Below are positions 612-17,100 of a stretch of 64,000 bases of DNA, piece after piece (position 1 is the first letter of the stretch; the number at the start of each line of letters is the position of its first letter). A program made the translations under genes and the position numbers. The notes below the pieces were generated by a model. It made no database searches, was not told where the DNA came from, and was given only the letters and a program-made list of their open reading frames with translations. The DNA lies in contig JANXSY010000233.1 in assembly GCA_025356435.1 (NCBI GenBank), forward strand, positions 7 to 64,006. Reading direction: 5' to 3'. The DNA comes from Isosphaeraceae bacterium (GTDB taxonomy: Bacteria > Planctomycetota > Planctomycetia > Isosphaerales > Isosphaeraceae).

Positions 612-1520
612 ATGCTTCCCGACGAGCCCAATAGCGACCCCACAGAGGAGTCGAATTTCTCTGATACGACCCGCGTCGAGACGGCGGGCCACGGCGACGA
701 CCGGCCGATCGTGATCCTGCCGATCGAACTTCGCGTGCTCGATCAGGCGGAACTTGACGAGGAGTTCGACGAAGACGAGATGGAAGACGGGCCACGCACC
801 GTCTTGATCACGGGCGCTTGCGGCAATATCGGCAGCAAGCTCCGTGCGACGCTCGGCGAGAACTACGACCTCGTCCTGATCGACCTCTATGCTCGCCCCG
901 ACGACGAGGAGGTGATCGTCGCCGACCTCGCCGAGTGGGACGAGTCGTGGGTCTCCCAGTTTGAAGACGTGGACACCGTCATTCACCTAGCGGGGAATCC
1001 GGACGAGTTCTCGTCATGGGACGACCTGGTGCAGCCAAACCTTGACGCGTTGGCGAACGTCCTCAACGCGGCGGCCTATGGTGGCGTTGAGCGTGTAATC
1101 TTCGCTAGTTCCAACCACGCAATGGGCGGCTATCGCGACCTTGGCGACATGCCAATCACCGTCGACCTACCCCCGAAGCCCGACGGCCCGTACGGCAGCC
1201 TGAAACTCGTCGGAGAACGGCTAGGGCGCAGCCTCGCCGCAGCCTTCGACCTGACCTTCATCGCTCTCCGGCTCGGGTGGGTTCAGTCGGGCGACAATCT
1301 CCCCAAGACTCTACCGGACGAGTGGTCGCGATTGTTGTGGCTCTCGAACAATGACCTCACTCATCTGGTCGAGTGTGCGATCGAAGCCGACCTCAGCGAC
1401 CGGAATTTTTTGGTCGTCAACGGAATGTCAAATAATCAAGGGATGCGATGGGATCTCTCCGAAACCGTCGAATGGCTCGGCTATGAGCCCGAAGACGACT
1501 CGGGGGCTGAAGCGATCTGA
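612..1520 (+). CDS. NAD-dependent epimerase/dehydratase (SDR family) with acidic N-terminal extension
   Basis: ORF track 302 aa. Rossmann motif VLITGACGNIGSKL. GC3-rich codons begin at 612, so the long form is plausible; an alternative start is the ATG at about 780 (MEDGPRTVLITG). Confidence 0.8.
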   Translation: MLPDEPNSDPTEESNFSDTTRVETAGHGDDRPIVILPIELRVLDQAELDEEFDEDEMEDGPRTVLITGACGNIGSKLRATLGENYDLVLIDLYARPDDEEVIVADLAEWDESWVSQFEDVDTVIHLAGNPDEFSSWDDLVQPNLDALANVLNAAAYGGVERVIFASSNHAMGGYRDLGDMPITVDLPPKPDGPYGSLKLVGERLGRSLAAAFDLTFIALRLGWVQSGDNLPKTLPDEWSRLLWLSNNDLTHLVECAIEADLSDRNFLVVNGMSNNQGMRWDLSETVEWLGYEPEDDSGAEAI

Positions 1521-1560
1521 GCGGCGAGTGATCGGCCAACCTCAATTCTACCACGATTAA

Positions 1561-1599
1561 GGGCCTCGGTCTCCTCCGCAAAGAAGGTGGCCGAGGCCC
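1561..1599. terminator. GC-rich hairpin between convergent genes
   Basis: GGGCCTCGG (1561-1569) pairs perfectly with CCGAGGCCC (1591-1599). It lies between the epimerase stop and the DUF1328 stop. There is no strong U-tract. Confidence 0.4.
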
Positions 1600-1632
1600 G
1601 TCTCGTTGAGGCTTACGCCGTGAAAGACACGG

Positions 1633-1809
1633 CTAGACGGTAGGCCCGCCCATGACTCGCCCGCCAAAGATTAGAGCGATCACGAACAGGACGAGGAAGA
1701 CCAGGGCGAAGATTTTGGCGATATAGGCAGAGGTCTCGGCAAGGCCGAAGAAACCGAGAGCACCGGCGATCAGGGAGATAATCGCGAAAGCGATGGCCCA
1801 GCGAAGCAT
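1633..1809 (-). CDS. DUF1328 (UPF0391) small membrane protein
   Basis: MLRWAIAFAIISLIAGALGFFGLAETSAYIAKIFALVFLVLFVIALIFGGR is the characteristic DUF1328 two-helix sequence. Start taken at the internal ATG 1807-1809 of the 83-aa track ORF. Confidence 0.85.
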   Translation of the reverse strand: MLRWAIAFAIISLIAGALGFFGLAETSAYIAKIFALVFLVLFVIALIFGGRVMGGPTV

Positions 1810-1902
1810 GGGATGGTCCTTTTTCGAGAGGTCAGGAAAGGAAGCCCAACCGAGGCCGCTCGCGTCGATCGAGGGTCGACGCAATCGAAGGACTCACGGA
1901 TT

Positions 1903-2325
1903 TCAACGCGACCGAAGCGCGAGGCCCACGATGAGTCCCGCGACGAGCCCGATGCCGAACGCGGCGGCGACTGACTGGCCCGGGTTGTGTCGGACGAGAT
2001 CCTCGGCCGACTCATAACGCTCTCGGACCTGCTCGGAGACCTGGCCGTAACCGTCGCGGAGTCGGTCGCCAGCAGTGTGGGCGAAGTCACCGACCGCTTG
2101 AGCAGCGTGGGCGACGGTCGATCCACCGTGTTGGGTCAGGTCGGTGAGGAACTTCTCGACGGCCTCACGAGCGATACCGGTCTTTTGCTGAATGCGACCG
2201 ACGAGTTGGTCAACGTTCCCACCCGTGATCTGAAGATCATCATCCGTGAGTTGGCCCCACTTCTCCTTAACCTGCCCCTTGAGCTTGTTCCACTGCCCCT
2301 GAAGTTCCTGTGCGTTGATGGCCAT
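1903..2325 (-). CDS. CsbD-like general stress domain fused to a DUF883 (ElaB/YqjD-type) C-terminal membrane anchor
   Basis: N-terminus MAINAQELQGQWNKLKGQVKEKWGQLTDDDLQITGGNVDQLVGRIQQKTG matches the CsbD pattern. C-terminus VRHNPGQSVAAAFGIGLVAGLIVGLALRSR is a DUF883 tail anchor. AGGAG lies 8 nt before the ATG at 2323-2325. Confidence 0.85.
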   Translation of the reverse strand: MAINAQELQGQWNKLKGQVKEKWGQLTDDDLQITGGNVDQLVGRIQQKTGIAREAVEKFLTDLTQHGGSTVAHAAQAVGDFAHTAGDRLRDGYGQVSEQVRERYESAEDLVRHNPGQSVAAAFGIGLVAGLIVGLALRSR

Positions 2326-2384
2326 CGTCATAGCTCCTGAAATCAATCCTGCCGACACCGCGGTCGGCCATGAAGGTTGAAGGA

Positions 2385-2400
2385 TGCAAGAGTAATGCCA
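2385..2400 (-). promoter_or_regulatory. sigma-54 type -24/-12 promoter (TGGCAT-TACTC-TTGCA)
   Basis: The reverse complement of 2385-2400 reads TGGCATTACTCTTGCA with exact GG-N10-GC spacing. It is about 55 nt upstream of, and co-oriented with, the CsbD-DUF883 start. Confidence 0.7.
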
Positions 2401-2466
2401 ACCGTGGCGTCAAAAACTCTGAAAATCTTATCTGTCGAACAATCAGCATGTTCTGTTATGAAAAAA

Positions 2467-2494
2467 GCCTCCCGGAATGATCCGGGAGGCTTTT
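2467..2494 (-). terminator. Rho-independent terminator (works on both strands) after the lipoprotein gene
   Basis: AAAAAA-GCCTCCCGGA-ATGA-TCCGGGAGGC-TTTT: a perfect 10-bp stem flanked by A and T runs, about 25 nt downstream of the minus-strand stop at 2518. Confidence 0.8.
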
Positions 2495-2517
2495 GAGGAA
2501 TTTAGAACCATCGCCAA

Positions 2518-2685
2518 TCAAGGCTTCTTATCGCCTGTCTTCGTGTCTTTCTCGGTGATGGTCTTGGTGTCGGTGCCACCTGGGCCCTTCTCGGTCACTT
2601 TGACCTCTTTCTTCGTCTCTTCGCCACAGCCGGTGAACATTGCGGTGATGCCGAGCATCAGGGACGAAATGATAAAGCGTTTCAT
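2518..2685 (-). CDS. small lipoprotein (hypothetical)
   Basis: MKRFIISSLMLGITAMFTGCGEE has a lipobox (FTGC). The mature part is Lys/Thr/Glu-rich. AGAGGA lies 8 nt upstream of the ATG 2683-2685. Confidence 0.7.
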   Translation of the reverse strand: MKRFIISSLMLGITAMFTGCGEETKKEVKVTEKGPGGTDTKTITEKDTKTGDKKP

Positions 2686-2771
2686 CGATCGATCCTCTTG
2701 TATACGGTTTCCGCTTCGCCAACCGCAGCCCAATGCCGCCAGCTTCGTAGCGTCGCTGAACGAAGGAAATA

Positions 2772-2787
2772 GGCAAGCGGCGTGCCA
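2772..2787 (-). promoter_or_regulatory. sigma-54 type -24/-12 promoter (TGGCAC-GCCGC-TTGCC)
   Basis: The reverse complement reads TGGCACGCCGCTTGCC with exact spacing. It is about 90 nt upstream of the lipoprotein start. Confidence 0.7.
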
Positions 2788-2900
2788 TACGCATGCGCGC
2801 CTTATCCGGCCTGTTGTTCTTGACTAATTTCCACTTCGCACTAGGAACGGTGGTTCGCCTAGTCGCGCAGCGGAATACGCGAAATGTGCAGGCCGATTCG

Positions 2901-2916
2901 CGGCATGACCCTTGCA
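2901..2916 (+). promoter_or_regulatory. sigma-54 type -24/-12 promoter (CGGCAT-GACCC-TTGCA)
   Basis: CGGCATGACCCTTGCA with exact GG-N10-GC spacing, about 75 nt upstream of the ATG at 2992. It sits back-to-back with the minus-strand element at 2772-2787. Confidence 0.6.
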
Positions 2917-2991
2917 ACACTTTAAACATCGTTGGACCTCATCAGGAGGTTTGGTCAGTTCTCCAATCATTAAAATGAAGGAGCCTCGGCA

Positions 2992-3432
2992 ATGCCTTCA
3001 GGAAACAAGGGCGGACAGAGTCAAGGGCAGAACCGGCAGAACGGTGGAGTGCCACGTCCCGATGAGGATCAGGGGTGGAAAATCGCCCAGCAGGTCCGCG
3101 AAGGGGCCGAAGGTGCAAGCAATCGGTTGCACGAAGGCTACGACGCGGCTCGTGAAGGGATCACTCACGGCTATCGTCGGGCTGAAGACGCGATCGCACG
3201 CAATCCCGCCCCGAGCGTCTTGCTGGGCTTTGGTCTCGGATTCGGCCTCGGCCTCGTGCTCTATCAGATGTTCGCCCACGAAGAAGAGAGTTGGACCGAG
3301 CGGAATATTACCGGGCCAATCCGCCACATGCATGTCCCCGAATCGGTCAAGCACGTACCGGAACACGTCCATCACTTGGCCGACGCCATCGTCAGCCGCC
3401 TGCCGCACTCGGTCCGGAAACACCTCGGTTGA
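2992..3432 (+). CDS. DUF883 (ElaB/YqjD-like) membrane-anchored stress protein with His-rich C-terminal extension
   Basis: ORF track 146 aa. AEDAIARNPAPSVLLGFGLGFGLGLVL is the DUF883 anchor motif. It is followed by HMHVPESVKHVPEHVHHL. GGAG precedes the ATG. Confidence 0.8.
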   Translation: MPSGNKGGQSQGQNRQNGGVPRPDEDQGWKIAQQVREGAEGASNRLHEGYDAAREGITHGYRRAEDAIARNPAPSVLLGFGLGFGLGLVLYQMFAHEEESWTERNITGPIRHMHVPESVKHVPEHVHHLADAIVSRLPHSVRKHLG

Positions 3433-3468
3433 TTTCTCGAATGCGTTGATGCGAAAGCTGGCGAGAAC

Positions 3469-3505
3469 GAGGCCGTCCCCGATCCGATAGGGTTGGGACG
3501 GCCTC
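3469..3505 (+). terminator. strong hairpin between the DUF883 gene and the next gene (terminator or attenuator candidate)
   Basis: GAGGCCGTCCC (3469-3479) pairs perfectly with GGGACGGCCTC (3495-3505). The downstream U-tract is weak. Confidence 0.4.
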
Positions 3506-3512
3506 TCCCCAT

Positions 3513-5132
3513 TTGACGCCCGGCCGTGGTCAATCGACAATGCTTCGACCGAGTTGTCGAATCACTGGATATGGCCGGTCTTCCCTCGACGCGTATGACG
3601 ACAGGCGGTGGGTTGTGCTCAAGTCGTGGAAAACGTGGGTATTGATCGTCCTCCTGATCGGCCCTTACGCGGTCTATATCGGGCTGGGGTTTCTCTGGCT
3701 CTTCGAGCGGGGATGGCTGCTGGCGAGCCTCGCCGGGCTCCTTGGCTTCGGCGGAGGTGTGCTCTTCTATGTGCTCGCCGCGCGATGGACTCGGACCAAC
3801 CGAGATCTGCTGCCGCCGATCGACTGGAACACGCCCTCAACCTTCTCTCCAATCGATCGCCAGGCATGGTCGATCGTCGAAGGGGAGTCGGATGTCGGAG
3901 AAGGCGTACCGCTGGAGTCGCTTACGGGTGCCGACCTCTATATCGATACCGGACGCCGTCTCGCGAATCGGCTGGCGAAGCATTATCACCCGCTCTCGGA
4001 CGACCCGATCGAAAATGTTCCGGTGATCGAGCTGCTCACCGCCCTCGAACTCGCGGCCGAAGACCTCAACGGCCTTTGCCGCCAGGTACCGGGCGGAGAC
4101 ATGATCACGGCTGGGCACTGGAAAACCGCCATCCAGGCTGCAGGATATATCACGAAGGCAAATAATCTCTATTCTTACATTCTCCCGCTCTTCAATCCGC
4201 TCACCGGAATTTCTCGCCTCGCCTCGCAACACCTCATGGTGAAGCCGGCTTGGAAGACGATGCAGCAGAATCTCCTTCGCTGGTTCTTCCAGGCTTACGT
4301 GAACCGACTTGGCATGCACCTGATCGAACTCTACAGCGGTCGGCTGGTGATCGGGTCTGCACAGTATCGTCGCCTGGTGCGGAAGATGGGCCAGACTCCG
4401 ACCGAGGTCGTCACCGAAGCCGGTCCGCTCACGATCACAGTGGCCGGGGCACGCGACTCGGGACATGCGGCTTTCGTCGCGGCGATTGTCGCGGCAAAGG
4501 AGGGTGATCGAACCTTGGTCTCCGCACGGCTCAAGGGCGCGGGAATGAGCGAGGAGGTGCTCAACAAACTTCTGCTGGCGAATTGGGTCGAGGCGACTGG
4601 CTATACAACAAAGCCAGATACGGAAACCGCACGCGACCGATCAACACGGCGGCACGCGGTCGCTGAGGCGACCGAGGTTGACCTGCTCCTCCTGTTCATC
4701 GACGACCGCCACGGCACTCTGACGGCCGACGCCGCGTTCGCCACCGCCTGGGACCGTTGGTTCATCGAGCACCCGTCCCGAGAGCGCCCGCCGATCGTCG
4801 TGGCCATGTTTGCGACCGACCGTTCTCGACTTGAAGCCGCGCGGGCGGTCTTGCCCCCGAGTGTGATCGATATCCTCGCCGTCGACCCGAACACGACCTC
4901 CGAGATGGATCGGATCGGCTCGATCCTGCCGACGGTCGCGACCCAGTTGCCGCGCGCCGAGCGGGTGTCGATCCTCCGCCATCTCCAGAGAATCTCGTCC
5001 CGATCGAAGGCGGGTCGGCTTGTGAGCCAGGTCGGCGAGAGCGGAAAATGGATCTGGGAGAACCTTCGGAAGCCAAAATCTGCCGGTATGGCCCAGCCCA
5101 AACACGAGCCGGAGAGCACGACACGGATCTGA
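3513..5132 (+). CDS. hypothetical membrane protein (2 N-terminal TM helices, large soluble part with a GTPase-like but P-loop-less core)
   Basis: ORF track 539 aa. TM segments WVLIVLLIGPYAVYIGLGFLWLF and LLASLAGLLGFGGGVLFYVLAA. Segment PLTITVAGARDSGHAAFVAAI followed later by DLLLLFIDD. Exact start uncertain (ATG about 3540 is also possible). Confidence 0.6.
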   Translation: MTPGRGQSTMLRPSCRITGYGRSSLDAYDDRRWVVLKSWKTWVLIVLLIGPYAVYIGLGFLWLFERGWLLASLAGLLGFGGGVLFYVLAARWTRTNRDLLPPIDWNTPSTFSPIDRQAWSIVEGESDVGEGVPLESLTGADLYIDTGRRLANRLAKHYHPLSDDPIENVPVIELLTALELAAEDLNGLCRQVPGGDMITAGHWKTAIQAAGYITKANNLYSYILPLFNPLTGISRLASQHLMVKPAWKTMQQNLLRWFFQAYVNRLGMHLIELYSGRLVIGSAQYRRLVRKMGQTPTEVVTEAGPLTITVAGARDSGHAAFVAAIVAAKEGDRTLVSARLKGAGMSEEVLNKLLLANWVEATGYTTKPDTETARDRSTRRHAVAEATEVDLLLLFIDDRHGTLTADAAFATAWDRWFIEHPSRERPPIVVAMFATDRSRLEAARAVLPPSVIDILAVDPNTTSEMDRIGSILPTVATQLPRAERVSILRHLQRISSRSKAGRLVSQVGESGKWIWENLRKPKSAGMAQPKHEPESTTRI

Positions 5133-5172
5133 CCCGCGTCGGGATCGGTCGTTGTGTCTCTTCCACACTTTT

Positions 5173-5188
5173 TGGCACTGAGATTGCG
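5173..5188 (+). promoter_or_regulatory. sigma-54 type -24/-12 promoter (TGGCAC-TGAGA-TTGCG)
   Basis: TGGCACTGAGATTGCG is a near-perfect consensus. It is 41 nt after the upstream stop and about 70 nt before the GTG start at 5255. Confidence 0.75.
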
Positions 5189-5254
5189 TAACTATTGGAC
5201 AAGTGGGGCGGTCGTGAACCGCCTGCGGTTTGTCACGCTGGAGAGGAACGCAAC

Positions 5255-5773
5255 GTGGCGACGGCTCCTAACGAGATCGACGACATTCGCCGCCAGATGG
5301 CCCGGATACGCCGCGAACTCCACGAAGATGTTCGCGACGTGGTCAAAGGGGCCGAGGCCGTCTCCGATTGGCGTCACTACATGCGCATGTATCCGTGGGC
5401 GACGGTCGTCGCGGCGGCTGCGATTGGCTACTTCGTTGTCCCGAAGCGGAGGAAGCCGGCAATCAAGGCGGCCGAGGTGGCCCAAGCAGTCGCTGCCGTG
5501 ATGCCCCAAATGGTCCTCCCGACACACGCCGCTTCCCCGAAACCCAGCAAGGGTTTAATCCGTGGTGCCCTCGGCCTTCTCACGCCGATCGCCTTGCGGG
5601 CCGCACAGAACTATGCGACTCATTTCGCCTCGAACTGGATCGCCCAGCAGCAAGCTCAGATGGCCGCAGCCGGGATGGCACCCCATCCCGAATCGCCCTC
5701 TCCCGGCGTCACGATGCCCGGTGGTCCTTCTCGTCCCGTCCAAGCGGGCCGTGGTGACGGATCGAGGATCTAA
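5255..5773 (+). CDS. hypothetical tail-anchored/one-TM protein (coiled N-terminus, first gene of a yqjD/yqjE-like trio)
   Basis: In frame with track ORF 5195-5773. GTG at 5255 is preceded by GGAGAGG at 8-nt spacing. NEIDDIRRQMARIRRELHEDV, then TM PWATVVAAAAIGYFVV. Confidence 0.6.
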   Translation: MATAPNEIDDIRRQMARIRRELHEDVRDVVKGAEAVSDWRHYMRMYPWATVVAAAAIGYFVVPKRRKPAIKAAEVAQAVAAVMPQMVLPTHAASPKPSKGLIRGALGLLTPIALRAAQNYATHFASNWIAQQQAQMAAAGMAPHPESPSPGVTMPGGPSRPVQAGRGDGSRI

Positions 5774-5785
5774 GGAGATAAAACG

Positions 5786-5968
5786 ATGGTCGATCGAGTC
5801 CAATTCGGTGCCAATAACCAGGCTCTTGAGGTCATGGCCACCGCCCGTGAGACCTTCACAAACAGCACCCGAACCGTCAAGGAATACATCAGCAAACAAC
5901 CCGCGCGTGCCATCGGCATCGCGCTCGGAATGGGGGTCCTCCTGGGATGGCTCATCAAGCGTCGATGA
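5786..5968 (+). CDS. DUF883 (ElaB/YqjD-like) small membrane-anchored protein
   Basis: ORF track 60 aa. The C-terminus KQPARAIGIALGMGVLLGWLIKRR is the DUF883 anchor. Confidence 0.8.
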   Translation: MVDRVQFGANNQALEVMATARETFTNSTRTVKEYISKQPARAIGIALGMGVLLGWLIKRR

Positions 5969-6402
5969 ATGGCGGACTTCGGTTTCGAGGCAGGCGCGAA
6001 AACGTCCTCGAAAGTCTCAGCGACCTCGGTGGAGACGTGGCCTCGCTCGTCGAGTTGCAGGCGAAGCTGACGGCGATCGACCTCAAAGAGACGATCGATA
6101 AGGCGACCTACCCGTCCGTGACACTCGCAGTTGCGGCGGTAGTCCTGATCGGGGCGATACCTGTCATGTTCATAGGACTGGCTTTTGTCCTTGCCATAGC
6201 ATTGTCAATCAGCCAGGGTGCCTCACTGTTGATCGTTGGGGTCACATTCGCCCTGATCGGCGGGGTCATCGGATGGATCGCGTTGATGAAAGTGCTCCAG
6301 AGCCTCCAGAGCTTCCGCCGCTCCCGCGAAGAGCTTATCCGGAACATTGCCTGGGTCAGGACTGTCATCGCCCAAAGTGGACGCGAGACCCATCGTTCGT
6401 GA
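5965..6402 (+). CDS. YqjE / Holin-X (PF07332, former DUF1469)-like membrane protein
   Basis: ATGA start/stop overlap with the preceding gene. LSDLGGDVASLVELQAKLTAIDLKE followed by two long TM helices, which is the family layout. Confidence 0.7.
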   Translation: MNGGLRFRGRRENVLESLSDLGGDVASLVELQAKLTAIDLKETIDKATYPSVTLAVAAVVLIGAIPVMFIGLAFVLAIALSISQGASLLIVGVTFALIGGVIGWIALMKVLQSLQSFRRSREELIRNIAWVRTVIAQSGRETHRS

Positions 6403-6421
6403 AGTCATAAAAATCGCATTC

Positions 6422-6456
6422 GGACGCGGCACAGCTCAAGAGTTGTGACCGCGTCC
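6422..6456 (+). other. hairpin downstream of the YqjE-like gene
   Basis: GGACGCGG (6422-6429) pairs with CCGCGTCC (6449-6456), with a further CACA/TGTG extension. Confidence 0.35.
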
Positions 6457-6487
6457 GGTCAATTGCATTTCATTACGAAAAACGAAT

Positions 6488-6527
6488 GGACGCCGCAGCC
6501 ATGTCTCAGGCTGCGGCGTCCGTTTTG
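6488..6527. terminator. bidirectional Rho-independent terminator between convergent operons
   Basis: GGACGCCGCAGCC-loop-GGCTGCGGCGTCC is a perfect 13-bp stem. GTTTTG follows on the plus strand and TTTTT follows on the minus strand. Confidence 0.85.
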
Positions 6528-6550
6528 CAGACCGAGGTCATACCGAGCGA

Positions 6551-6970
6551 TTAGGGCTTCTCGACCACGTCCGAGACGACCCGTCCGAGTTTCTGGGTCG
6601 AGATGTATGGAGACACGTCGGACCAGGCGATAATCCCGACGAGTTGATCTGAGGAGTCGGTCACGAGCAGGCGGCGGACAGTCTTCGAGGCGAAGCCCGA
6701 CTCGATCTCTTCGAGCGATGCTCCGGGACGGACCGCGATAACGCCACGGGTCATAATATCGGAGACGGGAAGGTCGATCAGATCGGCCCCTTTGTCGATG
6801 AGCGAGAGGGCCACGTCGCGATCGGTGAGAATACCAACCGGCTTGCCGTCTTCGGTGATCGGCACAGCACCGCAATCCGCGTCGCGAAAGATCATCGCGG
6901 CTTCGAGGACGGTGCTAAAGGTCGAACAGGTTCGAGGGGCCGGGGTCATCAGGTCGGCAGCGGTGGGCAT
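6551..6970 (-). CDS. CBS-pair domain protein
   Basis: MPTAADLMTPAPRTCS...AVPITEDGKPVGILTDRDV...DIMTRGVIAVRP...RRLLVTDSSDQLVGIIAWSDV: two CBS motifs. Start at the internal ATG 6968-6970. Confidence 0.85.
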   Translation of the reverse strand: MPTAADLMTPAPRTCSTFSTVLEAAMIFRDADCGAVPITEDGKPVGILTDRDVALSLIDKGADLIDLPVSDIMTRGVIAVRPGASLEEIESGFASKTVRRLLVTDSSDQLVGIIAWSDVSPYISTQKLGRVVSDVVEKP

Positions 6971-7027
6971 CGAAACGTTCTCCGGTAAATCGGACAATCT
7001 CGATCCACGAGACATAAGAAAAGAAAA

Positions 7028-7043
7028 TGCAAGTCTCGCGCCG
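7028..7043 (-). promoter_or_regulatory. candidate sigma-54 promoter (CGGCGC-GAGAC-TTGCA)
   Basis: The reverse complement is CGGCGCGAGACTTGCA with the correct GG-N10-GC spacing, about 58 nt upstream of the CBS gene start. The -24 half is weaker. Confidence 0.45.
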
Positions 7044-7059
7044 CTGCAACCCGTCCGAT

Positions 7060-8454
7060 TTAGGTTGACTTGAAAGGATACTTGTCGATTTCATACTGAC
7101 TGATCTTGCCAGAGACCGAGCGTCTCGACAGTCCGCAAAGTTCGGCGCAGCGGCCGACGTTGCCCCTGCTTTTTTCGAGCGCCTTGGTGATGTATTCTCG
7201 CTCAATCTGTTCGGTCGCCTTCTGTAAATAGAAGGGCAGCGGGTGCTTGAGATCGATCTCGAACCTCGGCTTCTCTTCGGACGTCGCCCCGCTCACCCTT
7301 GGGGGGAGGAACTCCGGGAGAATCGTGTCGCCCACGGTAGTAACCGCGGCGCGTTCGATGGCGTTCTCCAGTTCGCGGATGTTGCCCGGCCACCGATAGG
7401 CGAGCAGGCGTTCCATCGTCTCGGGCGAGACCTTCTTCGGCTGTTCGTTTGTTCGCGTGTACTTGTTAAGAAAGTGCGTGACGAGCAGGGGGATGTCTTC
7501 GGGCCTCTCGCGGAGTGGAGGGACGTCGATCTTAATGACGTTGAGGCGGTAGTAGAGGTCTTCCCTAAACTTCCCCTCCTTGACCAACGTTTCGAGGCTC
7601 TTGTTCGACGCGGCCACGACCCGGATATCGACCTCAATGCTCTCATGGCCGCCGACTCGCTCGAACTTCCGCTCCTGAAGCACGCGAAGGAGCTTCGCCT
7701 GCATGGCCTGGGAGATATCGCCGATCTCGTCGAGGAAAATGGTGCCCTTGTCGGCGAGTTCGAAACGCCCCTTCCGTCGCGCATCGGCCGAAGTGAAGGC
7801 ACCTCGTTCGTGCCCGAAAAGCTCCGATTCGAGCAGGCTTTCGGGCAGGGCCGCGCAATTGATGGCGATGAGGTTGCCCTGCCTGTCCTCACCAGAAAAA
7901 TGCACAGCCTTTGCAATCAATTCCTTGCCAGTTCCCGTCTCTCCCTCGATGAGAACGGTGCTCTTGGTGCCTCCGATATGCCGCACTAGCTCGAAGATCG
8001 AGTACATCTTCGGGTTTTTGCTGATGATGCTATGGAAGCTGAAGTTTTCCTTGAGTTGCTGCCGGAGTTGGAGCACCTCATCCTGAAGCGCCCGCTTCTT
8101 CAGGGCCCGGTCGATCACGATCTGGAGGTTGGTCGGGTCGATCGGCTTGGTGAGAAAGTCATATGCACCAAGTCGCATCGCCTCCACGACCCGATCAATC
8201 GAGCCGAAGGCGGTCGTTACGATCGTGGTGACCATCACGCGACGCTGCGCGACTTCCCGGATCAAGTCCATCCCCCCCATGCCGGGCATGCGGAGGTCGG
8301 TAATTAGCACGCTGTAATCGGCGGCGGCCAGCGCCGTAAGCGCGTCTTGCCCATTAGTGACTGCGTCGACACTTAGCGATTCCGACTCCAGGAGTTTCCG
8401 CAGCTGCGTCGTACTGTAGGCATCATCGTCGACTAGAAGCACTTTCCTGCGCAT
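7060..8454 (-). CDS. sigma-54-dependent response regulator (NtrC family enhancer-binding protein)
   Basis: Start MRRKVLLVDDD at 8452-8454. Receiver domain (VLITDLRMPGMGG). AAA+ domain with GETGTGKELIAKAVH and the sigma-54 contact loop as GAFTSA. C-terminal HTH (GNVGRCAELCGLSRRSV). Confidence 0.95.
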   Translation of the reverse strand: MRRKVLLVDDDAYSTTQLRKLLESESLSVDAVTNGQDALTALAAADYSVLITDLRMPGMGGMDLIREVAQRRVMVTTIVTTAFGSIDRVVEAMRLGAYDFLTKPIDPTNLQIVIDRALKKRALQDEVLQLRQQLKENFSFHSIISKNPKMYSIFELVRHIGGTKSTVLIEGETGTGKELIAKAVHFSGEDRQGNLIAINCAALPESLLESELFGHERGAFTSADARRKGRFELADKGTIFLDEIGDISQAMQAKLLRVLQERKFERVGGHESIEVDIRVVAASNKSLETLVKEGKFREDLYYRLNVIKIDVPPLRERPEDIPLLVTHFLNKYTRTNEQPKKVSPETMERLLAYRWPGNIRELENAIERAAVTTVGDTILPEFLPPRVSGATSEEKPRFEIDLKHPLPFYLQKATEQIEREYITKALEKSRGNVGRCAELCGLSRRSVSGKISQYEIDKYPFKST

Positions 8455-8543
8455 ACAACGTAGTTCCTTGTAGAGATGGCGGAGATCCAGGCGATTGATC
8501 GACTCATATCCAAGCCGATAGAGAGAGTCATTGCGCGACAATG

Positions 8544-8559
8544 GGCAAATTCGATTCCA
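8544..8559 (-). promoter_or_regulatory. weak sigma-54-like element upstream of the activator gene (TGGAAT-CGAAT-TTGCC)
   Basis: The reverse complement is TGGAATCGAATTTGCC. Spacing is right and the -12 is good, but the -24 lacks the C after GG. It is about 90 nt upstream of 8454. Confidence 0.25.
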
Positions 8560-8697
8560 ATCCACCAACACTTAACTCTGATTTTCGCACAAGAGCAATG
8601 AAATTCCAGTTCTTCTATCTTCACAAGCAATCATGTGCCCTCTCGCGGGTATTCTATCGCTTTCAAGTCGAAGGTATGTTAGTGGTGTTTGATTTAG

Positions 8698-8713
8698 TGG
8701 CATATCCTTTGCA
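8698..8713 (+). promoter_or_regulatory. sigma-54 type -24/-12 promoter (TGGCAT-ATCCT-TTGCA)
   Basis: TGGCATATCCTTTGCA with exact spacing, in the AT-rich divergent intergenic region about 180 nt upstream of the kinase ATG at 8896. Confidence 0.7.
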
Positions 8714-8895
8714 GACTGATTTTTCTATTCCGACTCTGAGAGCATCTTTGTCTTGAATAGAGTGTGAAGAGTTTTGCCTCAGGCCCCTTCATAAGTATTA
8801 CGACAAATGGGTTCATCACTCCAGTCAGCGCCATGATTGGCTCAACAGACCTAACCTCACCTTCACGGAGCGTCCAATAGGGCGCAGCCACCACG

Positions 8896-9591
8896 ATGAT
8901 CCCGTCTCCGATCCCCATCGACGTCGAGCTTCTCGCGACCATCGTCCACGATATTCGCAATCCCCTTAACGTGATTGGTCTCACGTTGCGGGTGATCGAG
9001 CAAATGCCTGATCATCTCCGCTCCGAGATTCAGGAAGACGTGGATTTCCTCCGCGATAACGCCGGTCAGATCGAGAAGATGCTCTCGCTCCTCAGCGATT
9101 TTTGCCGCCTAAGCGAGTTGGAGGACCCGGGCACCCCGGCCTCGTTCGATCCGAGGCGTTTCATCGAAGAAGTGCTCGCTGAGCGTGCGCATCGGGGGAA
9201 CGATAAAGCGTTTCCGGCCATCTTTACGAGAGACCCGTCCACCCCTGCTTCGGTGAATCTCGACCCGGTTCGAGCGAGGATCGCACTGCTGTGTGCTCTG
9301 ACCAATGCTGCGGGGGCCTCAGATTGCCCTCTCTCCGTTAGGACTTCGGGAACGGCTGACCGTTTGACGATTGCAATCATCGTGAAAAAGCCGCCGCCCT
9401 CCACGGTGTTCGCGAGAAGGGTGAATCCCGAGCAGTACGAGCGGCTTATTGCGACGCAAACCGAGCGGCGGGGCCTCGACCTGGCCATCGCCTCGTCCAT
9501 CTCGGCCCAGTTCGGCGGGTCGCTCCATCTCGATGTCGCGCCGAATGAAGGAACGACCATCGTGATCGACTGGCCCGTCAATTCGGCCTGA
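8896..9591 (+). CDS. cytoplasmic histidine kinase-like protein without sensor/TM domain
   Basis: ORF track 231 aa. H-box LLATIVHDIRNPLNVI. N-box-like LLCALTNAAGA. The G1 (DxGxG) box is not recognisable and the G2 reads RRGLDLAI. Confidence 0.75.
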   Translation: MIPSPIPIDVELLATIVHDIRNPLNVIGLTLRVIEQMPDHLRSEIQEDVDFLRDNAGQIEKMLSLLSDFCRLSELEDPGTPASFDPRRFIEEVLAERAHRGNDKAFPAIFTRDPSTPASVNLDPVRARIALLCALTNAAGASDCPLSVRTSGTADRLTIAIIVKKPPPSTVFARRVNPEQYERLIATQTERRGLDLAIASSISAQFGGSLHLDVAPNEGTTIVIDWPVNSA

Positions 9592-10267
9592 GTCCGGAAG
9601 TCAATCGGGCGGGAAGCTCATCGAGCATGCCGAAATCGAGGAGTCGCTCGCCTGTCCCCGCCCAACAGCGCAGCGAGCGGCCCGACCAGCGCTTCGGGAC
9701 GGGCATCTGGGCCACGTTAAGCCCTGCCGCGTTGTTGCTGAAGGCCGGGAGGACGATCGTCGATGGCCCGACGAGCAGGCACCGCGCCACCGTCCGTCCC
9801 ACGCGCAAGATCGGGTGATCGTGCCCCGAGATGGTGCAAGCTGCCTCGATCGGCCGATGCCCATGGGCGATTGTCCACCCGTCAACCTCGATCGTGAGCG
9901 GCGATCTCCGGCCGTGCTTGGGGTCGTGGTTGCCCAAGACTCGGATGAGTTCAACCCCGCGCACCTTCATCCAGCGTTCGAGCTCGACGAGATCCGCGGT
10001 GGTTCGCCGACACGGTAGGGGCGACTCGACGAGATCTCCCGCGACAATCAGTCGCGTGATTGGGCCTCTATCGAAGAGCGAGGTCAGCGACCGGATCGTC
10101 TCCGTGAGCGAATGGGCGGGCACGATATCTCCACCGGTCCCCCTTGCCCACTCATAACCGAGATGCACGTCGGCAATCACCGCCGTTCGCTCGGCGCGAT
10201 GTATGACAGCCCCCTCCGGCGCGAGCCACCAGCGACCGGGCCCTGGGACAAGGACGGATTGTGTCAT
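9578..10267 (-). CDS. pdeM: ligase-associated DNA damage response endonuclease PdeM (metallophosphoesterase)
   Basis: ORF track 229 aa. AVIADVHLGYEW...IVAGDLVES...VLGNHD...ISGHDHP are calcineurin-like motifs. ATGA overlap with the upstream helicase gene. Confidence 0.85.
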   Translation of the reverse strand: MTQSVLVPGPGRWWLAPEGAVIHRAERTAVIADVHLGYEWARGTGGDIVPAHSLTETIRSLTSLFDRGPITRLIVAGDLVESPLPCRRTTADLVELERWMKVRGVELIRVLGNHDPKHGRRSPLTIEVDGWTIAHGHRPIEAACTISGHDHPILRVGRTVARCLLVGPSTIVLPAFSNNAAGLNVAQMPVPKRWSGRSLRCWAGTGERLLDFGMLDELPARLTSGLRPN

Positions 10268-12867
10268 GATCCATCGGCTCGGGTGGTACCGAGGAGTCGG
10301 GCGTGAAGCCGGCCAAGCGCGTCGTCGGCGGTCTCGAAAGAAATGGCTTCGCGTCTGGACGAGGAGATCCAGGCCAGGGCGAACGGAGAGAGAGAGGGGA
10401 GCGATCGAAACCTGACCGTCGGCCCGGAGGCGAGCCAGTCGAGGGCCGAACGGGTATCGAGCAGGTCTTCGAGGACTTCTCGACGGGTCTCGCGGAGCAG
10501 GGGGTGGTCAGGGCACGCCGCCCGAACGAGAGGGTAGAGCCTGTTGCTCACCCAGAGCATCCCCCCCACACGCGTCCTGCCTCCTTCGGGATTGCGGAGC
10601 ACCATCAGGGCCGTCGCGGCGACGTGTCGGAATCGTCGGGCTATCAGTTCGCCCCGATCCAGGCCATCGACGACGTCATCGGCGAAGTCAACGGGCGAGA
10701 CGAGGGCAGGAATGTCGGCCGTCGCGAGCCGAAACCCGTCGGGTAGGCTGATCGACCAGCCGAGGTCGGCGATGGAGAGGGCAAGGTCGCGGCCGAATCG
10801 ACGTCCCAACCTCGCCCCCATGGCGCGGGCGAGGGCTTCGATGGCCGAACGCCCGAGGGGGGCGTGAAAGGTGTAGGTAAAGCCGGAGTCCTCTTCCGAC
10901 GGCGATTCCTCGACGAGGAGTAAGTCATCGGAAGGAACCTCACTCTCCCGCTCCTGCGCCGTGATGAGCGATTCGATGACGCCCGCAGCCTCGGGATCGA
11001 GGTCGTGCGTTTCCATCAACCATGAACGGAGCGACGAGGGCCCGTCGGCAAGAAGACTCGCGGCGCGGGTTCGAAAACCGGCGAGGTCGCGAGCCAGCTC
11101 GGGCGAAAGGCCCTGCCGGTCGCTCGACCAGCGAGGCAGATTGGGCTCACCGCCAGATGAGTTTGCGTGGACAACGGTGCCCTCGATGCGGCGAAATTCG
11201 AGCGATTGACCATCAAGGACGAACCGATCCCCAGGCTGGAGACGCTCGGCATAGGCCGATTCGAGGGTGCCTATTGGCGTCCCATTGGCGATGACGCGGC
11301 AAGACTCCTCAGAGGTGATCGTGCCGACGTTGCCCCAGAACCAGCGGATCACCCGACGACTCCTGATCCCAAACCGGCCGCGTGCCTTCCAGATTCGCGG
11401 AGCCGTCCACCGAGGGGCTGCGCCAGGTTCTGACTCATAGGCTCCGCTCGGCGCGGCGAGGTCTCCAGCGAGGAAATCGAGGCAGGCGTCGTAATCGGCA
11501 CGTGAAAGCCCAGACATCGGCCCCGCTTTGCTCACGAGGTTGTAGGAGTCGTCGGATTCGCATTCGCCGCCGCAGGCCATCCCGATGAGTTGCTGGCAGA
11601 GCACATCGAGCGGATTCTCCACCATCCGCAAGGGCTCGATCCGCCCCTCACGCGCCGCGTGGGCGGTGACGACGCCTCCGACCAATTCGGCTGGGGTGGC
11701 GGCGAGCAATAGACCACGCGTCGTCTCCCCGGGACGGTGCCCCGCCCGTCCGACTCGCTGGAGACAGCGTGAGGCGCTGCCGGGAAGGCCGACCAGAATC
11801 GAGAGGTCGGCGTCTCCGATATCGACCCCGAGTTCAAGGCTGGTGCTGGTGACGACCGCCTTGAGGTCCCCCGCCTTGAGCGACGCCTCGACCGCGCGTC
11901 GGCGATCCGCATCGAGCGCCGAGTGATGGGCGGCGATCGCGGCGGGCTCGACCGTACCCATCGCGCGGAGGTCATGAGTGACTTTCTCCGTGAAGGCCCG
12001 GGTGTTGGCGAACACGATCGTGGTCCGGTTCGCGGAGAGCGCCCGATCGAGGCGGCGGAGCAGGCGGCGATACGTCAGGCCGCGATGCGGCGATTCGTCG
12101 GCCTTGAGGAGCGATTCGACCTCGATCACGAGGTCTGAGCTTGGAGCCGGATCGGCCTCCAGAATCCGACAACGGCGGCCAGGTCCGACGAGAAATCGCG
12201 CGACCGGCTCGGCCGGACGACAGGTTGCGGAGAGGCCGATCCGGACTGGGTCAGAACCGGCCTTGGCCGCGAGTCGTTCGAGCGAGATGGCGAGGTCGGC
12301 CCCTCGTTTGTTCGGAACGAGCGAATGCACCTCATCGACGACCAGATGCGTCACACCTCGCCAGAGGGGAGTCCATGCGGATTGGCTGAGGAGGAGCGAG
12401 AGGCTCTCCGGCGTCGTGATCAGGAGGTGAGGGGGCTTGTCTCGCTGCTTCCGCCGATGATAGGCCGAGCTATCGCCAGTCCGGACGCCGACCTGAATTG
12501 GGCTCGAATCGAGGCCGAGTTGAAGGCGGATCGACTCAAGCGGGAGGCTCAGGTTTCGCTCGATGTCGTAACTGAGGCTGCGGAGCGGCGAGACGTAGAC
12601 GCAACGCAAGCCCGACGTGAGCGAGCCGGCCTCATGCTCGAGATAGAGTCGGTTGAGGATCGCCAGGAAGGCGGCGAGCGTCTTGCCAGTCCCGGTCGGC
12701 GAGACGAGCAGGGTATGCTCGCCAGCGTCGATGACGGGCCAGGCCAGCCGTTGCGCGGAGGTCGGACCCATCGGGAAGGTCGCCGCGAACCAGGTTCGGA
12801 CAGAACCCGAGAGCGGACCGAGTTCGGAGGGCGTGACAGGCTTATCAGTACGCATCCGAGCGGGCAA
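10264..12867 (-). CDS. ligase-associated DNA damage response DEXH-box helicase (Lhr-core type)
   Basis: ORF track 867 aa. Walker A SPTGTGKTLAAFL, DEVH box (LVVDEVHSL), helicase C motifs (VTSTSLELGVDIG, QRVGRAGH) and the Lhr-type C-terminal domain. Confidence 0.9.
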   Translation of the reverse strand: MPARMRTDKPVTPSELGPLSGSVRTWFAATFPMGPTSAQRLAWPVIDAGEHTLLVSPTGTGKTLAAFLAILNRLYLEHEAGSLTSGLRCVYVSPLRSLSYDIERNLSLPLESIRLQLGLDSSPIQVGVRTGDSSAYHRRKQRDKPPHLLITTPESLSLLLSQSAWTPLWRGVTHLVVDEVHSLVPNKRGADLAISLERLAAKAGSDPVRIGLSATCRPAEPVARFLVGPGRRCRILEADPAPSSDLVIEVESLLKADESPHRGLTYRRLLRRLDRALSANRTTIVFANTRAFTEKVTHDLRAMGTVEPAAIAAHHSALDADRRRAVEASLKAGDLKAVVTSTSLELGVDIGDADLSILVGLPGSASRCLQRVGRAGHRPGETTRGLLLAATPAELVGGVVTAHAAREGRIEPLRMVENPLDVLCQQLIGMACGGECESDDSYNLVSKAGPMSGLSRADYDACLDFLAGDLAAPSGAYESEPGAAPRWTAPRIWKARGRFGIRSRRVIRWFWGNVGTITSEESCRVIANGTPIGTLESAYAERLQPGDRFVLDGQSLEFRRIEGTVVHANSSGGEPNLPRWSSDRQGLSPELARDLAGFRTRAASLLADGPSSLRSWLMETHDLDPEAAGVIESLITAQERESEVPSDDLLLVEESPSEEDSGFTYTFHAPLGRSAIEALARAMGARLGRRFGRDLALSIADLGWSISLPDGFRLATADIPALVSPVDFADDVVDGLDRGELIARRFRHVAATALMVLRNPEGGRTRVGGMLWVSNRLYPLVRAACPDHPLLRETRREVLEDLLDTRSALDWLASGPTVRFRSLPSLSPFALAWISSSRREAISFETADDALGRLHARLLGTTRADGS

Positions 12868-15069: not shown

Positions 15070-15957
15070 TTGTCTTCCCGATGGGCCGTCGCGTGTCGTA
15101 GACTTGGGGCACCCCTTGATGTCCCTCGTCACGAGCGCCGGAAGGCTCGATCCGTGTCCGAATTGCCGATCAATAAGGTGTTGCCGCCGGCCGACCGCGA
15201 CCAGGGTCGGGCCTGGAGTCGTCAGGCTGCGCGGTATGGCGACCTGTTTCTCGACCCGTTTCGGCCAGGGGTCGAGAGTCCTCTACTGCCGGCCTTGGCG
15301 GATCTGCCGAGACCCGAGACGCTCACGGTGGCCGACCTCGGGTGCGGGATCGGGCCGCTGTTGCCTGATCTGGTCGGGAAATTTGGGCGAGTGATCGCCG
15401 TCGACTTCGCGCCGGGGATGATCGCCAAGGCAAAGAAACGGCTCGGCAAGGAGGCGGCGAAGGTCGAGTTCCTCGCGCGGCCGATGTTCGAACTCGATGA
15501 CCTTGCCGGTCAGCTTGATGTCGCTATCGCCGTTAACTCGATCGTCATGCCCGACGTCCGGGACATTGATCGCACCCTCTCGGCAATCCGGGCGGCGATG
15601 AAGCCTGACGGCGTCTTCTATGCCGTGTTGCCGGCGATGGACGCGATTCATTATCATACAATGATCCTGCATGACCAGGCGCTGGACCGTGGTCTCGAAC
15701 CCGAGGAGGCCGAGCGGCACGCGGCGTTTCATGCCGAGCATCATTTCTACGACTTCGCCCTCGGCCGATTCGGCTTCCTGGGCCTCCGCCAGAAGTTCTG
15801 GCAACCGTTCGAGGCCCGCCACCGCTTCGCCAAGGCCGGTTTCCGCGAGGTGGAACTCTCGCAGGTCCTCTACCCCTGGGACGATAGCATCGCCGGCTTC
15901 CAAGACTTTACGCACCTCCCCAAGAGCTGGGACTGGTTCGTCAAGGCGCGGCCGTGA
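15070..15957 (+). CDS. class I SAM-dependent methyltransferase
   Basis: ORF track 295 aa. Motif I VADLGCGIGPLLPDL and post-I VIAVDFAPGMI. The likelier start is the GTG at about 15154 (VSELPINK). Confidence 0.85.
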   Translation: MSSRWAVACRRLGAPLDVPRHERRKARSVSELPINKVLPPADRDQGRAWSRQAARYGDLFLDPFRPGVESPLLPALADLPRPETLTVADLGCGIGPLLPDLVGKFGRVIAVDFAPGMIAKAKKRLGKEAAKVEFLARPMFELDDLAGQLDVAIAVNSIVMPDVRDIDRTLSAIRAAMKPDGVFYAVLPAMDAIHYHTMILHDQALDRGLEPEEAERHAAFHAEHHFYDFALGRFGFLGLRQKFWQPFEARHRFAKAGFREVELSQVLYPWDDSIAGFQDFTHLPKSWDWFVKARP

Positions 15958-17054: not shown

Positions 17055-17100
17055 ATGTCGGGCCGCACGGGCCGAATACCACAGCGAGACGAGCACGACC

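Follow-up and report, generated by a model that had tools for sequence, protein, structure and literature searches.

A cluster of conserved, predicted sigma-54 promoters in front of small membrane stress-type genes beside an NtrC-type activator in Isosphaeraceae

At the left end of a 64,000-nt stretch of DNA from an Isosphaeraceae bacterium (GenBank assembly GCA_025356435.1, contig JANXSY010000233.1, positions 7 to 64,006; hereafter the window, with its first letter as position 1), genes for small membrane proteins of the CsbD, DUF883-like, DUF1328 and YqjE-like kinds lie beside the gene for an NtrC-type enhancer-binding response regulator, and several of them follow sequences that resemble the -24/-12 promoters read by sigma-54. 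This raises the question of whether these sequences are promoters, and whether the neighbouring activator serves them as one regulon, as was proposed in an initial annotation made from the sequence alone. The core of that proposal, sigma-54 promoters before CsbD, DUF883-like, DUF1328 and YqjE-like genes next to an NtrC-type activator, is supported by the conservation of the elements and by the synteny of the genes, and we give a probability of roughly 70% to the reading that the region is a conserved sigma-54 regulon of small membrane stress-type genes with an adjacent two-component activator.

The strict pattern GGCAY-N5-TTGC was searched on both strands of the window against a null of 100 dinucleotide-preserving shuffles, and -24/-12 elements were also scored with a simple, home-made position weight matrix (PWM) based on the published consensus, the scores of which are heuristic only. 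The strict pattern was found six times versus an expectation of 0.79 +/- 0.80 (maximum of 3 in the shuffles), and five of these six matches fall within 2386-8712 (about 6.3 kb), every one in non-coding DNA, in agreement with the earlier claim of a clustering that exceeds chance. Close to the consensus TGGCAC-N5-TTGCW, with exact GG-N10-GC spacing, are P1 (TGGCATTACTCTTGCA, 2385-2400, minus strand, PWM 17.7), 59 nt upstream of the CsbD-DUF883 gene; P2 (TGGCACGCCGCTTGCC, 2772-2787, minus strand), 86 nt upstream of a small lipoprotein gene and at the head of the lipoprotein/CsbD-DUF883/DUF1328 unit; P3 (CGGCATGACCCTTGCA, 2901-2916, plus strand), divergent from P2 and 75 nt upstream of a His-tailed DUF883-like gene; P4 (TGGCACTGAGATTGCG, 5173-5188, plus strand), 66 nt upstream of a three-gene operon (5255-6402); and P6 (TGGCATATCCTTTGCA, 8698-8713, plus strand), 182 nt upstream of a histidine kinase gene and, at 18.4, the top PWM score of the window. 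Together these five occupy PWM ranks 1 to 5 (18.4, 17.7, 14.8, 14.2 and 13.85), followed by scores of 13.8 and 13.5. The sixth element of the initial annotation is P5 (CGGCGCGAGACTTGCA, 7028-7043, minus strand, PWM 9.3), which lies between the CBS gene, whose ATG at 6970 is 57 nt downstream, and the stop codon of the activator gene.

All six elements were found with the sequences, coordinates and strands previously given, and all six are co-oriented with and upstream of a start codon as described, with the adjustment that the CBS gene has to start at 6970 instead of 7015, as supported by the alignment of its orthologues. The list was incomplete, as two further conserved elements were added: P7 (TGGAATCGAATTTGCC, 8544-8559, minus strand), 89 nt upstream of the activator gene, and P8 (CGGTATCCGGTTTGCA, 46989-47004, minus strand), well outside the region originally considered and 65 nt upstream of a YflT-domain stress gene (46297-46923, minus strand). 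All eight elements are intergenic, point towards their gene and lie 57-182 nt upstream of its start codon, and we consider it very probable that they function as sigma-54 promoters.

Other matches in the window did not qualify or stand apart. The sixth strict match (33469-33484, minus strand, core 33470-33483) had seemed to lie upstream of hpf, but is inside the open reading frame (ORF) of a lactate permease, 330 nt from the true hpf start, and is the expected chance match. A match at 47146 (minus strand) before the YflT gene scores higher than P8 but is not conserved, the conserved element being the weaker one at 46989. A PWM match at 43791-43806 (plus strand, TGGCACGGACTTCGCT, score 13.8) is located in the spacer before the gene of an M48 (HtpX-like) peptidase (43970-45571), at a distance of 165 nt, and a further one at 16063 (plus strand) falls within an ORF.

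The evidence that we regard as decisive for these predicted promoters is their position-specific conservation across the Isosphaeraceae. For P1, metagenomes were scanned with the CsbD-DUF883 protein, which gave 80 distinct loci with 60-91% protein identity, 71 of which had at least 150 nt of upstream sequence and were searched for an element with a PWM score of at least 11.5 at 40-140 nt upstream. Such an element was present in 67 of the 71 orthologous contigs, where about 0.45 were expected from the rate elsewhere in the same contigs (0.0064 per 100 nt). The GG, CA and TTGC of P1 are invariant in 67/67, while spacer and flanks are variable, and P1 is also present in Singulisphaera acidiphila DSM 18658 (CP003364.1, our locus L162) and in a close relative of the window (L171).

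The other elements behave likewise in smaller sets of loci, which include the metagenome contigs L095, L126, L137, L139, L140 and L157. P2 is kept in ten loci (L171, L095, L137, L139, L157, L161, L083, L084, L120 and L129) and P3 in nine (L171, L162, L095, L126, L137, L139, L157, L161 and L140), with the unusual 5' C of P3 retained in eight of these nine and replaced in L140, which reads TGGCAT. A four-way alignment of the spacer before the operon shows P4 as its one conserved stretch of notable length ahead of the start codon, followed downstream by a short GGGCG block that is likewise invariant; P4 was found in nine orthologous loci with varying spacer bases. P5 keeps its GG-N10-GC and TTGCA without exception across an alignment of seven sequences (six orthologues plus the window) in the midst of DNA that cannot be aligned, and its GG and TTGCA are also kept in L171 as an eighth locus. 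Equivalents of P6 are present in five loci (L171, L162, L004, L002 and L012), where they precede a gene for a 65-amino-acid tail-anchored protein followed by the kinase gene. The GG and TGC of P7 are invariant at the correct spacing in a five-way alignment of the kinase-activator spacer, and P7 is found in S. acidiphila as well. With regard to P8, a GGTATC-N4-TTTGCA sequence lies 100-116 nt upstream of the YflT orthologues in L166, L167, L168 and L170, and a fifth orthologue (L169) has CGGCACCAACTTTGCC, a GGCAC version. Single genomes carry most of the set: P1 to P6 all occur in L171, and P1 plus P3 to P7 in S. acidiphila DSM 18658.

Conservation of the elements is matched by that of the gene order. 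The 11-gene cluster, consisting of DUF1328, CsbD-DUF883 and lipoprotein genes, then His-tailed DUF883, GTPase-like, 172-amino-acid, 60-amino-acid and YqjE-like genes, then CBS and activator genes, and finally the kinase gene, is arranged alike in S. acidiphila DSM 18658 (CP003364.1, 1,241,514-1,263,139), L171, L095, L126, L137 and L139. Partial copies were found in L140 and L157, Tundrisphaera keeps the half from kinase to GTPase, and L008 and L019 keep parts of that half. The closest orthologues of the activator are from Isosphaeraceae (86% identity in Tundrisphaera lichenicola, 78-87% in several metagenome-assembled genomes). Enhancer-binding proteins of other phyla with 40-48% identity to the activator have no such neighbouring genes. 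In relatives, strong sigma-54 elements also precede a BrkB/YihY-family gene and a gene for an unannotated 172-amino-acid protein just past the kinase (S. acidiphila locus 17183-17198 and 17945-17960; L019 8085-8100 and 6211-6226; L002 12060-12075), two genes that the window does not have at this position. In a Planctomycetia metagenome-assembled genome with a 54% identical activator (L005, 2554-2922), a DUF1328 gene and a gene for a 166-amino-acid membrane protein adjoin the activator gene, each behind a sigma-54-like element. The spacer between activator and P6 in L171 (approximately 11900-12380) holds several copies of a palindromic repeat resembling repetitive extragenic palindromes (GTTCCCAYGG...CCGTGGGAATGCCGTCTGCGACGCTC), none of which was found in the window.

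Taken as promoters, the seven elements within approximately 6.3 kb would drive five transcription units. P2 and P1 would transcribe the lipoprotein, CsbD-DUF883 and DUF1328 genes; P3 would serve the gene of the His-tailed DUF883-like protein, with that of the membrane GTPase-like protein probably included; P4 would serve the three-gene YqjD/YqjE-like operon; P7 and P5 the activator and the CBS protein; and P6 the kinase. P8, in front of the YflT stress gene elsewhere in the window, would add at least one more promoter to the regulon.

The activator itself appears intact. It is a 464-amino-acid NtrC/AtoC-type response regulator (7060-8454, minus strand) with REC, Sigma54_activat, AAA_lid_14 and HTH_8 domains, and has the domain set of group I bacterial enhancer-binding proteins, with REC (92 bits), Sigma54_activat (232 bits) and HTH_8 (41 bits) all over their Pfam cut-offs. 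As was noted initially, it is the sole regulator of the block and its loop reads GAFTSA; the Pfam domains and the loop were confirmed, and there is no other regulator gene. This predicted sigma-54 contact loop keeps the essential F and T residues, and is a natural variant rather than a sign of decay, since the orthologues retain either GAFTSA or GSFTSA and loops of this type recur in more than 15 enhancer-binding proteins of Acidobacteria. Among NCBIfam models the activator scores best with AtoC, followed by NtrC and ZraR (ZraR 380 bits, PspF 283 bits), but as all models stay under their equivalog cut-offs, it cannot be equated by orthology with any named regulator.

The kinase (8896-9591, plus strand, 231 amino acids) consists of HisKA and HATPase_c domains only, with neither a sensor domain nor a transmembrane segment detected. 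Its orthologues have 379-388 amino acids in Singulisphaera and Tundrisphaera (S. acidiphila locus 16021-17160; L004 8319-9485), with extra sequence at the N-terminus that resembles a REC domain by eye and has no Pfam match, and 235 amino acids in L171, which has a core-only kinase as well. Between P6 and the kinase, relatives carry the gene for a 65-amino-acid DUF883_C-like tail-anchored protein (...ALWA.GIGFVLGWKLKPW*; L171 12511-12708, S. acidiphila locus 15470-15667), whereas in the window 8714-8895 is a 182-nt leader of approximately 41% G+C without this gene; the gene that relatives have kept was lost here, with the long leader as its remnant. The anchored protein of the relatives and the CBS protein, encoded behind the activator gene and read from P5, may be candidates for signal input. 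Abutting the kinase gene on its other side, an Lhr-type DEAD-box helicase gene (867 amino acids) overlaps a PdeM-like phosphoesterase gene (9578-12867, minus strand), a pair known as a ligase-associated DNA damage response module.

These parts suggest a simple circuit, in which the soluble core kinase would phosphorylate the NtrC-type response regulator, and the AAA+ domain of the latter would remodel the sigma-54 holoenzyme at the promoters via its GAFTSA loop. As P7 precedes the activator gene and P6 the kinase gene, positive autoregulation is suggested and the circuit could be self-amplifying. Its output would be a surge of small membrane proteins, most of them with a single helix, belonging to families that are part of general stress and stationary-phase regulons in other phyla. 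The adjacent activator probably drives most of the promoters, and the outcome may be an adjustment of membrane or translation under stress or in soil dormancy; a general stress or dormancy role is a plausible suggestion to which we give slightly less than even odds.

Public metagenomic contigs may offer an indirect hint of transcription from P2. Most of the 80 loci with the CsbD-DUF883 gene are contigs of 1.0-1.4 kb, and 44 of the 52 short contigs with a whole lipoprotein gene have their first base 32-80 nt ahead of its ATG, with the mode at 59-72. In contigs that include P2, its -12 GC is located 87-101 nt upstream of this ATG, which predicts a transcription start site 75-89 nt upstream, and the 5' ends of the contigs pile up within approximately 20 nt downstream of this predicted site. 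At the other end, 36 of 64 short contigs stop no more than 70 nt past the DUF1328 stop codon (32 at 16-70 nt), the position of a hairpin in the window. Assemblies made from RNA would have this shape, and if the samples are metatranscriptomes it suggests a P2-to-terminator transcript of approximately 1.2 kb. The very large number of public contigs of about 1.2 kb with the lipoprotein/CsbD-DUF883/DUF1328 operon also suggests that this operon is strongly expressed in soil. The putative transcript from P2 has a conserved stem-loop close to its 5' end, CTTCGT...ACGAAG in the window (approximately 2725-2755, minus strand) and GGNCC-AGCG-GGGNCC in the lipoprotein 5' untranslated region of many orthologues (L083 to L161), which could be an mRNA-stabilising or regulatory hairpin. 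When the His-tailed DUF883/GTPase unit was inspected in the same way, one of the three available contigs fitted and two did not.

Gene identities were checked with Pfam and NCBIfam, and this bore out the CsbD, DUF1328, YqjE-like and CBS-pair assignments. The CsbD-DUF883 gene (1903-2325, minus strand) encodes 140 amino acids, with a YjbJ-like CsbD domain (PF05532, 62 bits versus a gathering cut-off of 40; YjbJ model PRK10428, E 4e-18) followed by a DUF883-type C-terminal anchor, which has a DUF883_C score of 23.4 bits, under the cut-off of 27, and 33% identity to the C-terminus of Escherichia coli YqjD (E 9e-5). A search of public data with this protein gave 1546 clusters (at 90% identity) of related sequences, and among the 120 clusters listed nearly all are 140 amino acids long, mostly on contigs of approximately 1-2 kb, with at least 75% identity plus one at 63%; this would fit a high abundance. 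The gene is followed by that for a 58-amino-acid DUF1328 (YtjA-like) protein with two transmembrane segments (1633-1809, minus strand; PF07043, 46 bits versus a cut-off of 27) in 69 of the 80 contigs, which all contain the complete triad with the lipoprotein gene. The lipoprotein (2518-2685, minus strand, 55 amino acids) has a signal peptide and lipobox cysteine with a conserved MKRF...LVGC(G/S)... sequence, precedes CsbD-DUF883 in over 50 contigs, and has a hairpin with T-run behind its gene (2461-2490, minus strand), as read from the sequence.

Across the P2/P3 spacer, the first gene codes for a 146-amino-acid DUF883-like membrane protein with a His-rich C-terminal tail (2992-3432, plus strand), which is syntenic in eight loci and had no matches in Pfam or NCBIfam, but shares homology with the CsbD-DUF883 protein over the middle and anchor of the latter, at 30-45% identity and with E-values as low as 6e-9. 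The next gene, initially read as a 539-amino-acid membrane protein, starts at 3615 instead (3615-5132, plus strand), and encodes 505 amino acids of an Era/EngA-like GTPase-family protein anchored by two N-terminal transmembrane segments. Its tie to this family is weak (EngA, E 0.0096), with orthologues annotated as GTPase and some matching PF01926. Its Walker A motif is degenerate (GARDSGHA, residues approximately 277-285) and lacks the lysine of GxxxxGK[ST], while the Singulisphaera clade keeps GARGAGK[ST]. Compared with that clade, the proteins of the window clade combine this K-to-H change with a 37-amino-acid deletion around residue 400, and the protein may be a pseudo-GTPase in the window lineage. 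Foldseek searches with its AlphaFold model gave Nog1 and HflX as top matches, which serve as a hint only as the TM-scores are about 0.2 and the model is of medium confidence (predicted local distance difference test score of 69.6).

The three translationally linked genes behind P4 begin with that for a 172-amino-acid membrane protein (5255-5773, plus strand), which is syntenic and has a DUF883_C-like helix with 43% identity over 21 amino acids to YqjD, the L171 orthologue matching DUF883_C with an E-value of 0.0028. The second (5786-5968, plus strand) encodes a 60-amino-acid tail-anchored protein with an ElaB/YqjD-type anchor (DUF883_C 24.1 bits, under cut-off; 37% identity to E. coli YqjD over 43 amino acids, E 2e-7; NCBIfam ElaB, E 0.018), and the third (5965-6402, plus strand), the start of which overlaps the preceding stop codon (ATGA), a 145-amino-acid YqjE-like membrane protein (Phage_holin_3_6, PF07332, 57 bits versus a cut-off of 28.4), with E. 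coli YqjE belonging to the same Pfam family. The DUF883-type anchors with DUF883_C scores of 23-24 bits, just under the cut-off of 27, have a C-terminal glycine-zipper transmembrane helix after a proline and basic ends (...KRR and ...RSR). The stand-alone CBS-pair protein (6551-6970, minus strand, 139 amino acids; two copies of PF00571, 82 bits) is encoded next to the activator in nine orthologous loci. The YflT gene behind the conserved P8 would extend the regulon beyond the cluster, approximately 38 kb away. Elsewhere, the window contains a weak ISL3-type transposase remnant (13105-14193, minus strand) and an Rrf2 regulator gene divergent from a protoglobin gene (39870-41116), and an Rfam scan of the whole window gave no matches.

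Several observations weigh against a single regulon with a stress role. P2 is degraded in L140 and in S. acidiphila; P5, P7 and P8 deviate from the consensus at -24 (GGCGC, GGAAT and GGTAT), with GG-N10-GC and (T)TGC kept; and P7 is the least secure element, as its -24 reads GA instead of GG in L171. The contig ends could alternatively reflect assembly breaks at variable DNA, since the RNA origin of the samples is an assumption. Simple searches, which degenerate sites could escape, revealed no upstream activator sequence or dyad common to the promoters, either in the window or in the orthologues, and no sigma-54 gene was present among the approximately 50 ORFs of the window searched with Pfam, nor did an RpoN-box regular expression match in the orthologous loci collected. 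Even with a threshold of E <= 5, none of the four DUF883-like proteins matched the N-terminal DUF883 domain (PF05957), whereas E. coli YqjD matches with 4e-13. The role is uncertain, with only the anchor of DUF883 present and a GTPase-like protein that lacks its P-loop lysine in this lineage. The initial description of these proteins as ElaB/YqjD-like holds for the C-terminal anchor and the neighbouring yqjE-type gene, and does not extend to the N-terminal domain. YqjD, ElaB and YgaM are C-tail-anchored ribosome-inactivating proteins that reportedly require their N-terminus for inactivation (bioRxiv 10.1101/2024.08.16.608256), and the suggested ribosome-hibernation-type module is accordingly weaker than it was stated to be.

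Of the explanations that compete with a single regulon, the one that survives best is that the promoters are real but that the adjacent two-component system serves only some of them, for example those of its own genes and the CBS gene, with other enhancer-binding proteins, encoded elsewhere, driving the stress genes; the cluster would then be a 'sigma-54 island' instead of one regulon. This would account for the lack of a common activator binding site upstream of the promoters, which was searched for in several ways: direct and inverted repeats in 1500-9000 gave no candidate site common to the promoters, no 9-mer with one mismatch was shared across the seven upstream regions, k-mer frequencies upstream of 68 P1 orthologues yielded only the lipoprotein terminator hairpin and coding sequence, the divergent P2/P3 spacer aligned over nine loci contained no activator site, and an enumeration of 5+5 dyads in the window and S. 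acidiphila gave none that recurs from one promoter to another. One dyad, GAACA-N7-TGTTC ahead of P1, was considered as activator site and rejected, as it was found in the window only. The same explanation is consistent with P8, an element of the same type far from the cluster, with Tundrisphaera, where the CsbD/His-tailed DUF883 half does not adjoin the activator, and with the two styles of -24 element (GGCAC/T in P1-P4 and P6 versus GGTAT, GGAAT or GGTCC in P5, P7 and P8). However, the complete arrangement with the activator at its centre is kept in at least seven independent loci, the cluster offers no second regulator to take over, and enhancer-binding proteins can act over hundreds of bases from sites that are often degenerate. 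We consider this division of labour unlikely, and prefer a single regulon under the adjacent activator, a link that is drawn from conserved co-location because no shared binding site was found.

A second explanation, that the motif is the operator of another DNA-binding protein such as a repressor, with transcription starting at unrecognised sigma-70 or extracytoplasmic function (ECF) sigma factor promoters, is highly improbable. In its favour, the start sites are predicted ones, and the presence of rpoN in this genome is implied by the activator only, since the gene was not found in the window or the collected loci. Yet the motif is asymmetric, always co-oriented with a gene and 57-182 nt from its start codon, and has both sigma-54 halves at exactly GG-N10-GC; its conservation is confined to the bases contacted by sigma-54, and a sigma-54 activator gene is adjacent. 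Moreover, the region has no excess of sigma-70-like promoter matches (2 versus 2.3 expected), and contig 5' ends fall just downstream of P2. Chance matches in AT-richer intergenic DNA can be dismissed, for while the intergenic DNA has 41-50% G+C versus 63.5% window-wide, which shifts the local expectation, and one strict match elsewhere is indeed due to chance, none of the 100 shuffles reached 6 matches, a Poisson expectation of approximately 0.08 per 6.5 kb gives a probability of about 1e-8 for five, and position-specific conservation in dozens of diverged orthologues refutes it.

In relation to rpoN, the window has a row of genes for an EI-type phosphoenolpyruvate-utilising enzyme, an HPr/NPr-like protein, a PtsN-like EIIA-2 protein of the phosphotransferase system and a Ribosomal_S30AE 'sigma-54 modulation protein'/HPF (29841-33241, minus strand). 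In proteobacteria, this gene set follows rpoN; upstream of the row in the window is a divergent L-lactate permease gene (33250-35046) and no rpoN. Planctomycetes do have a functional sigma-54: Rhodopirellula baltica carries rpoN (RB6491; PMC2754498), and rpoN of Planctopirus limnophilus complements a Salmonella mutant (Leary et al. 1998, as cited in PMC3906078).

If the single regulon is accepted, it combines a known kind of system with new targets. Sigma-54/two-component regulons are a known kind, and this one is well supported and has a target gene set that is not known to have been linked to sigma-54 before: a limited literature search found no paper in which both DUF883 and sigma-54 occur, and papers with both CsbD and RpoN were irrelevant, so that the earlier statement that a two-component sigma-54 regulon of such tail-anchored proteins is undescribed survives within the limits of this search. 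Proteins of the CsbD, DUF883, YqjE, DUF1328 and YflT families are stress-induced in many bacteria, their functions are poorly understood, and their genes are usually scattered in very large sigma factor regulons. One cluster of approximately 8 kb with a self-contained sigma-54 circuit would provide a compact co-regulated set that can be switched via one activator, and would give these families new partners in the membrane GTPase-like protein, the CBS protein and the small lipoprotein. It would also be the first defined regulon of the Isosphaeraceae, which are common soil and peat bacteria, and would extend the themes of sigma-54 to general-stress-type genes. In the most far-reaching version, which we regard as doubtful, sigma-54 with an autoregulated kinase and activator would be the master regulator of a programme for general stress or dormancy in soil Isosphaeraceae, with its effectors, namely the CsbD-DUF883 fusion, further DUF883-type anchors, YqjE, DUF1328, YflT and a membrane-anchored GTPase of ribosome type, acting jointly at the cytoplasmic membrane, for instance by tethering or silencing ribosomes, and with the triad transcript among the most abundant planctomycete mRNAs in soil; if true, sigma-54 would do the job there that RpoS, sigma-B or EcfG do in other phyla.

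With regard to known systems, the closest match in gene content is the set of small stress proteins under RpoS (sigma-S) in E. coli and Salmonella (yqjCDEK, elaB, ygaM, yjbJ and ytjA), which belong to the same families: CsbD, DUF883-type C-tail anchor, PF07332 and DUF1328. The initial annotation had described the ElaB/YqjD/YqjE group of E. coli as RpoS-controlled, and this is supported for ElaB, which is under RpoS and OxyR control (PMC6389858), while the CsbD-like yjbJ and the DUF1328 gene ytjA likewise encode sigma-S-controlled small proteins in Salmonella (PMC5437024). Both the cluster and the enterobacterial set have a DUF883-type gene followed by a yqjE-type gene, a pairing that is reported to be a syntenic block across the family, with yqjE and yqjK as conserved neighbours, and approximately 300 DUF883 proteins are reported from the Planctomycetes-Verrucomicrobia-Chlamydiae (PVC) group (bioRxiv 10.1101/2024.08.16.608256). 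The control differs, being sigma-S in enterobacteria versus predicted sigma-54 promoters and a dedicated two-component activator in the window, and the genes are scattered in E. coli but clustered here, with one copy having a CsbD domain in place of the N-terminal DUF883.

In the design of its control, the cluster resembles the ZraSR-ZraP and Psp systems, which likewise pair the gene of a sigma-54 activator with divergent sigma-54 promoters of membrane or envelope stress genes and are autoregulated. These are enterobacterial sigma-54 envelope stress responses with one or two promoters each, in which ZraS is a membrane sensor and PspF has no receiver domain, whereas the window combines a soluble core kinase and an activator with receiver domain with seven to eight predicted promoters. 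No matches to PspA/IM30, PspBC or ZraP were found within the cluster, and the absence of a PspA-family protein, the activator score of 283 bits versus the PspF cut-off of 444 and the presence of the receiver domain place it outside the Psp systems. In the Chlamydia trachomatis CtcB-CtcC system, CtcC is not known to have a DNA-binding domain, while the window activator has HTH_8. This sigma-54 system (PMC7482065) is likewise close in design, is from the same PVC superphylum and shares an AtoS/AtoC-like pair and a regulon dominated by membrane proteins, but its targets are developmental-stage membrane and type III secretion proteins and not CsbD, DUF883 or DUF1328.

The sigma-B regulon of Bacillus and the EcfG regulon of Alphaproteobacteria overlap with the cluster in the effector families CsbD and YflT. 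The sigma-B regulon includes CsbD as well as YflT, the latter being called 'general stress protein 17M' in Bacillus, and sigma-B and EcfG rely on partner-switching control of a sigma-70-family factor. Unlike these, the system in the window would use an ATP-dependent enhancer-binding protein acting on sigma-54. Finally, sigma-54 has been proposed to control the cell exterior (Francke et al., PMC3162934), and the predicted regulon of small membrane proteins fits this theme.

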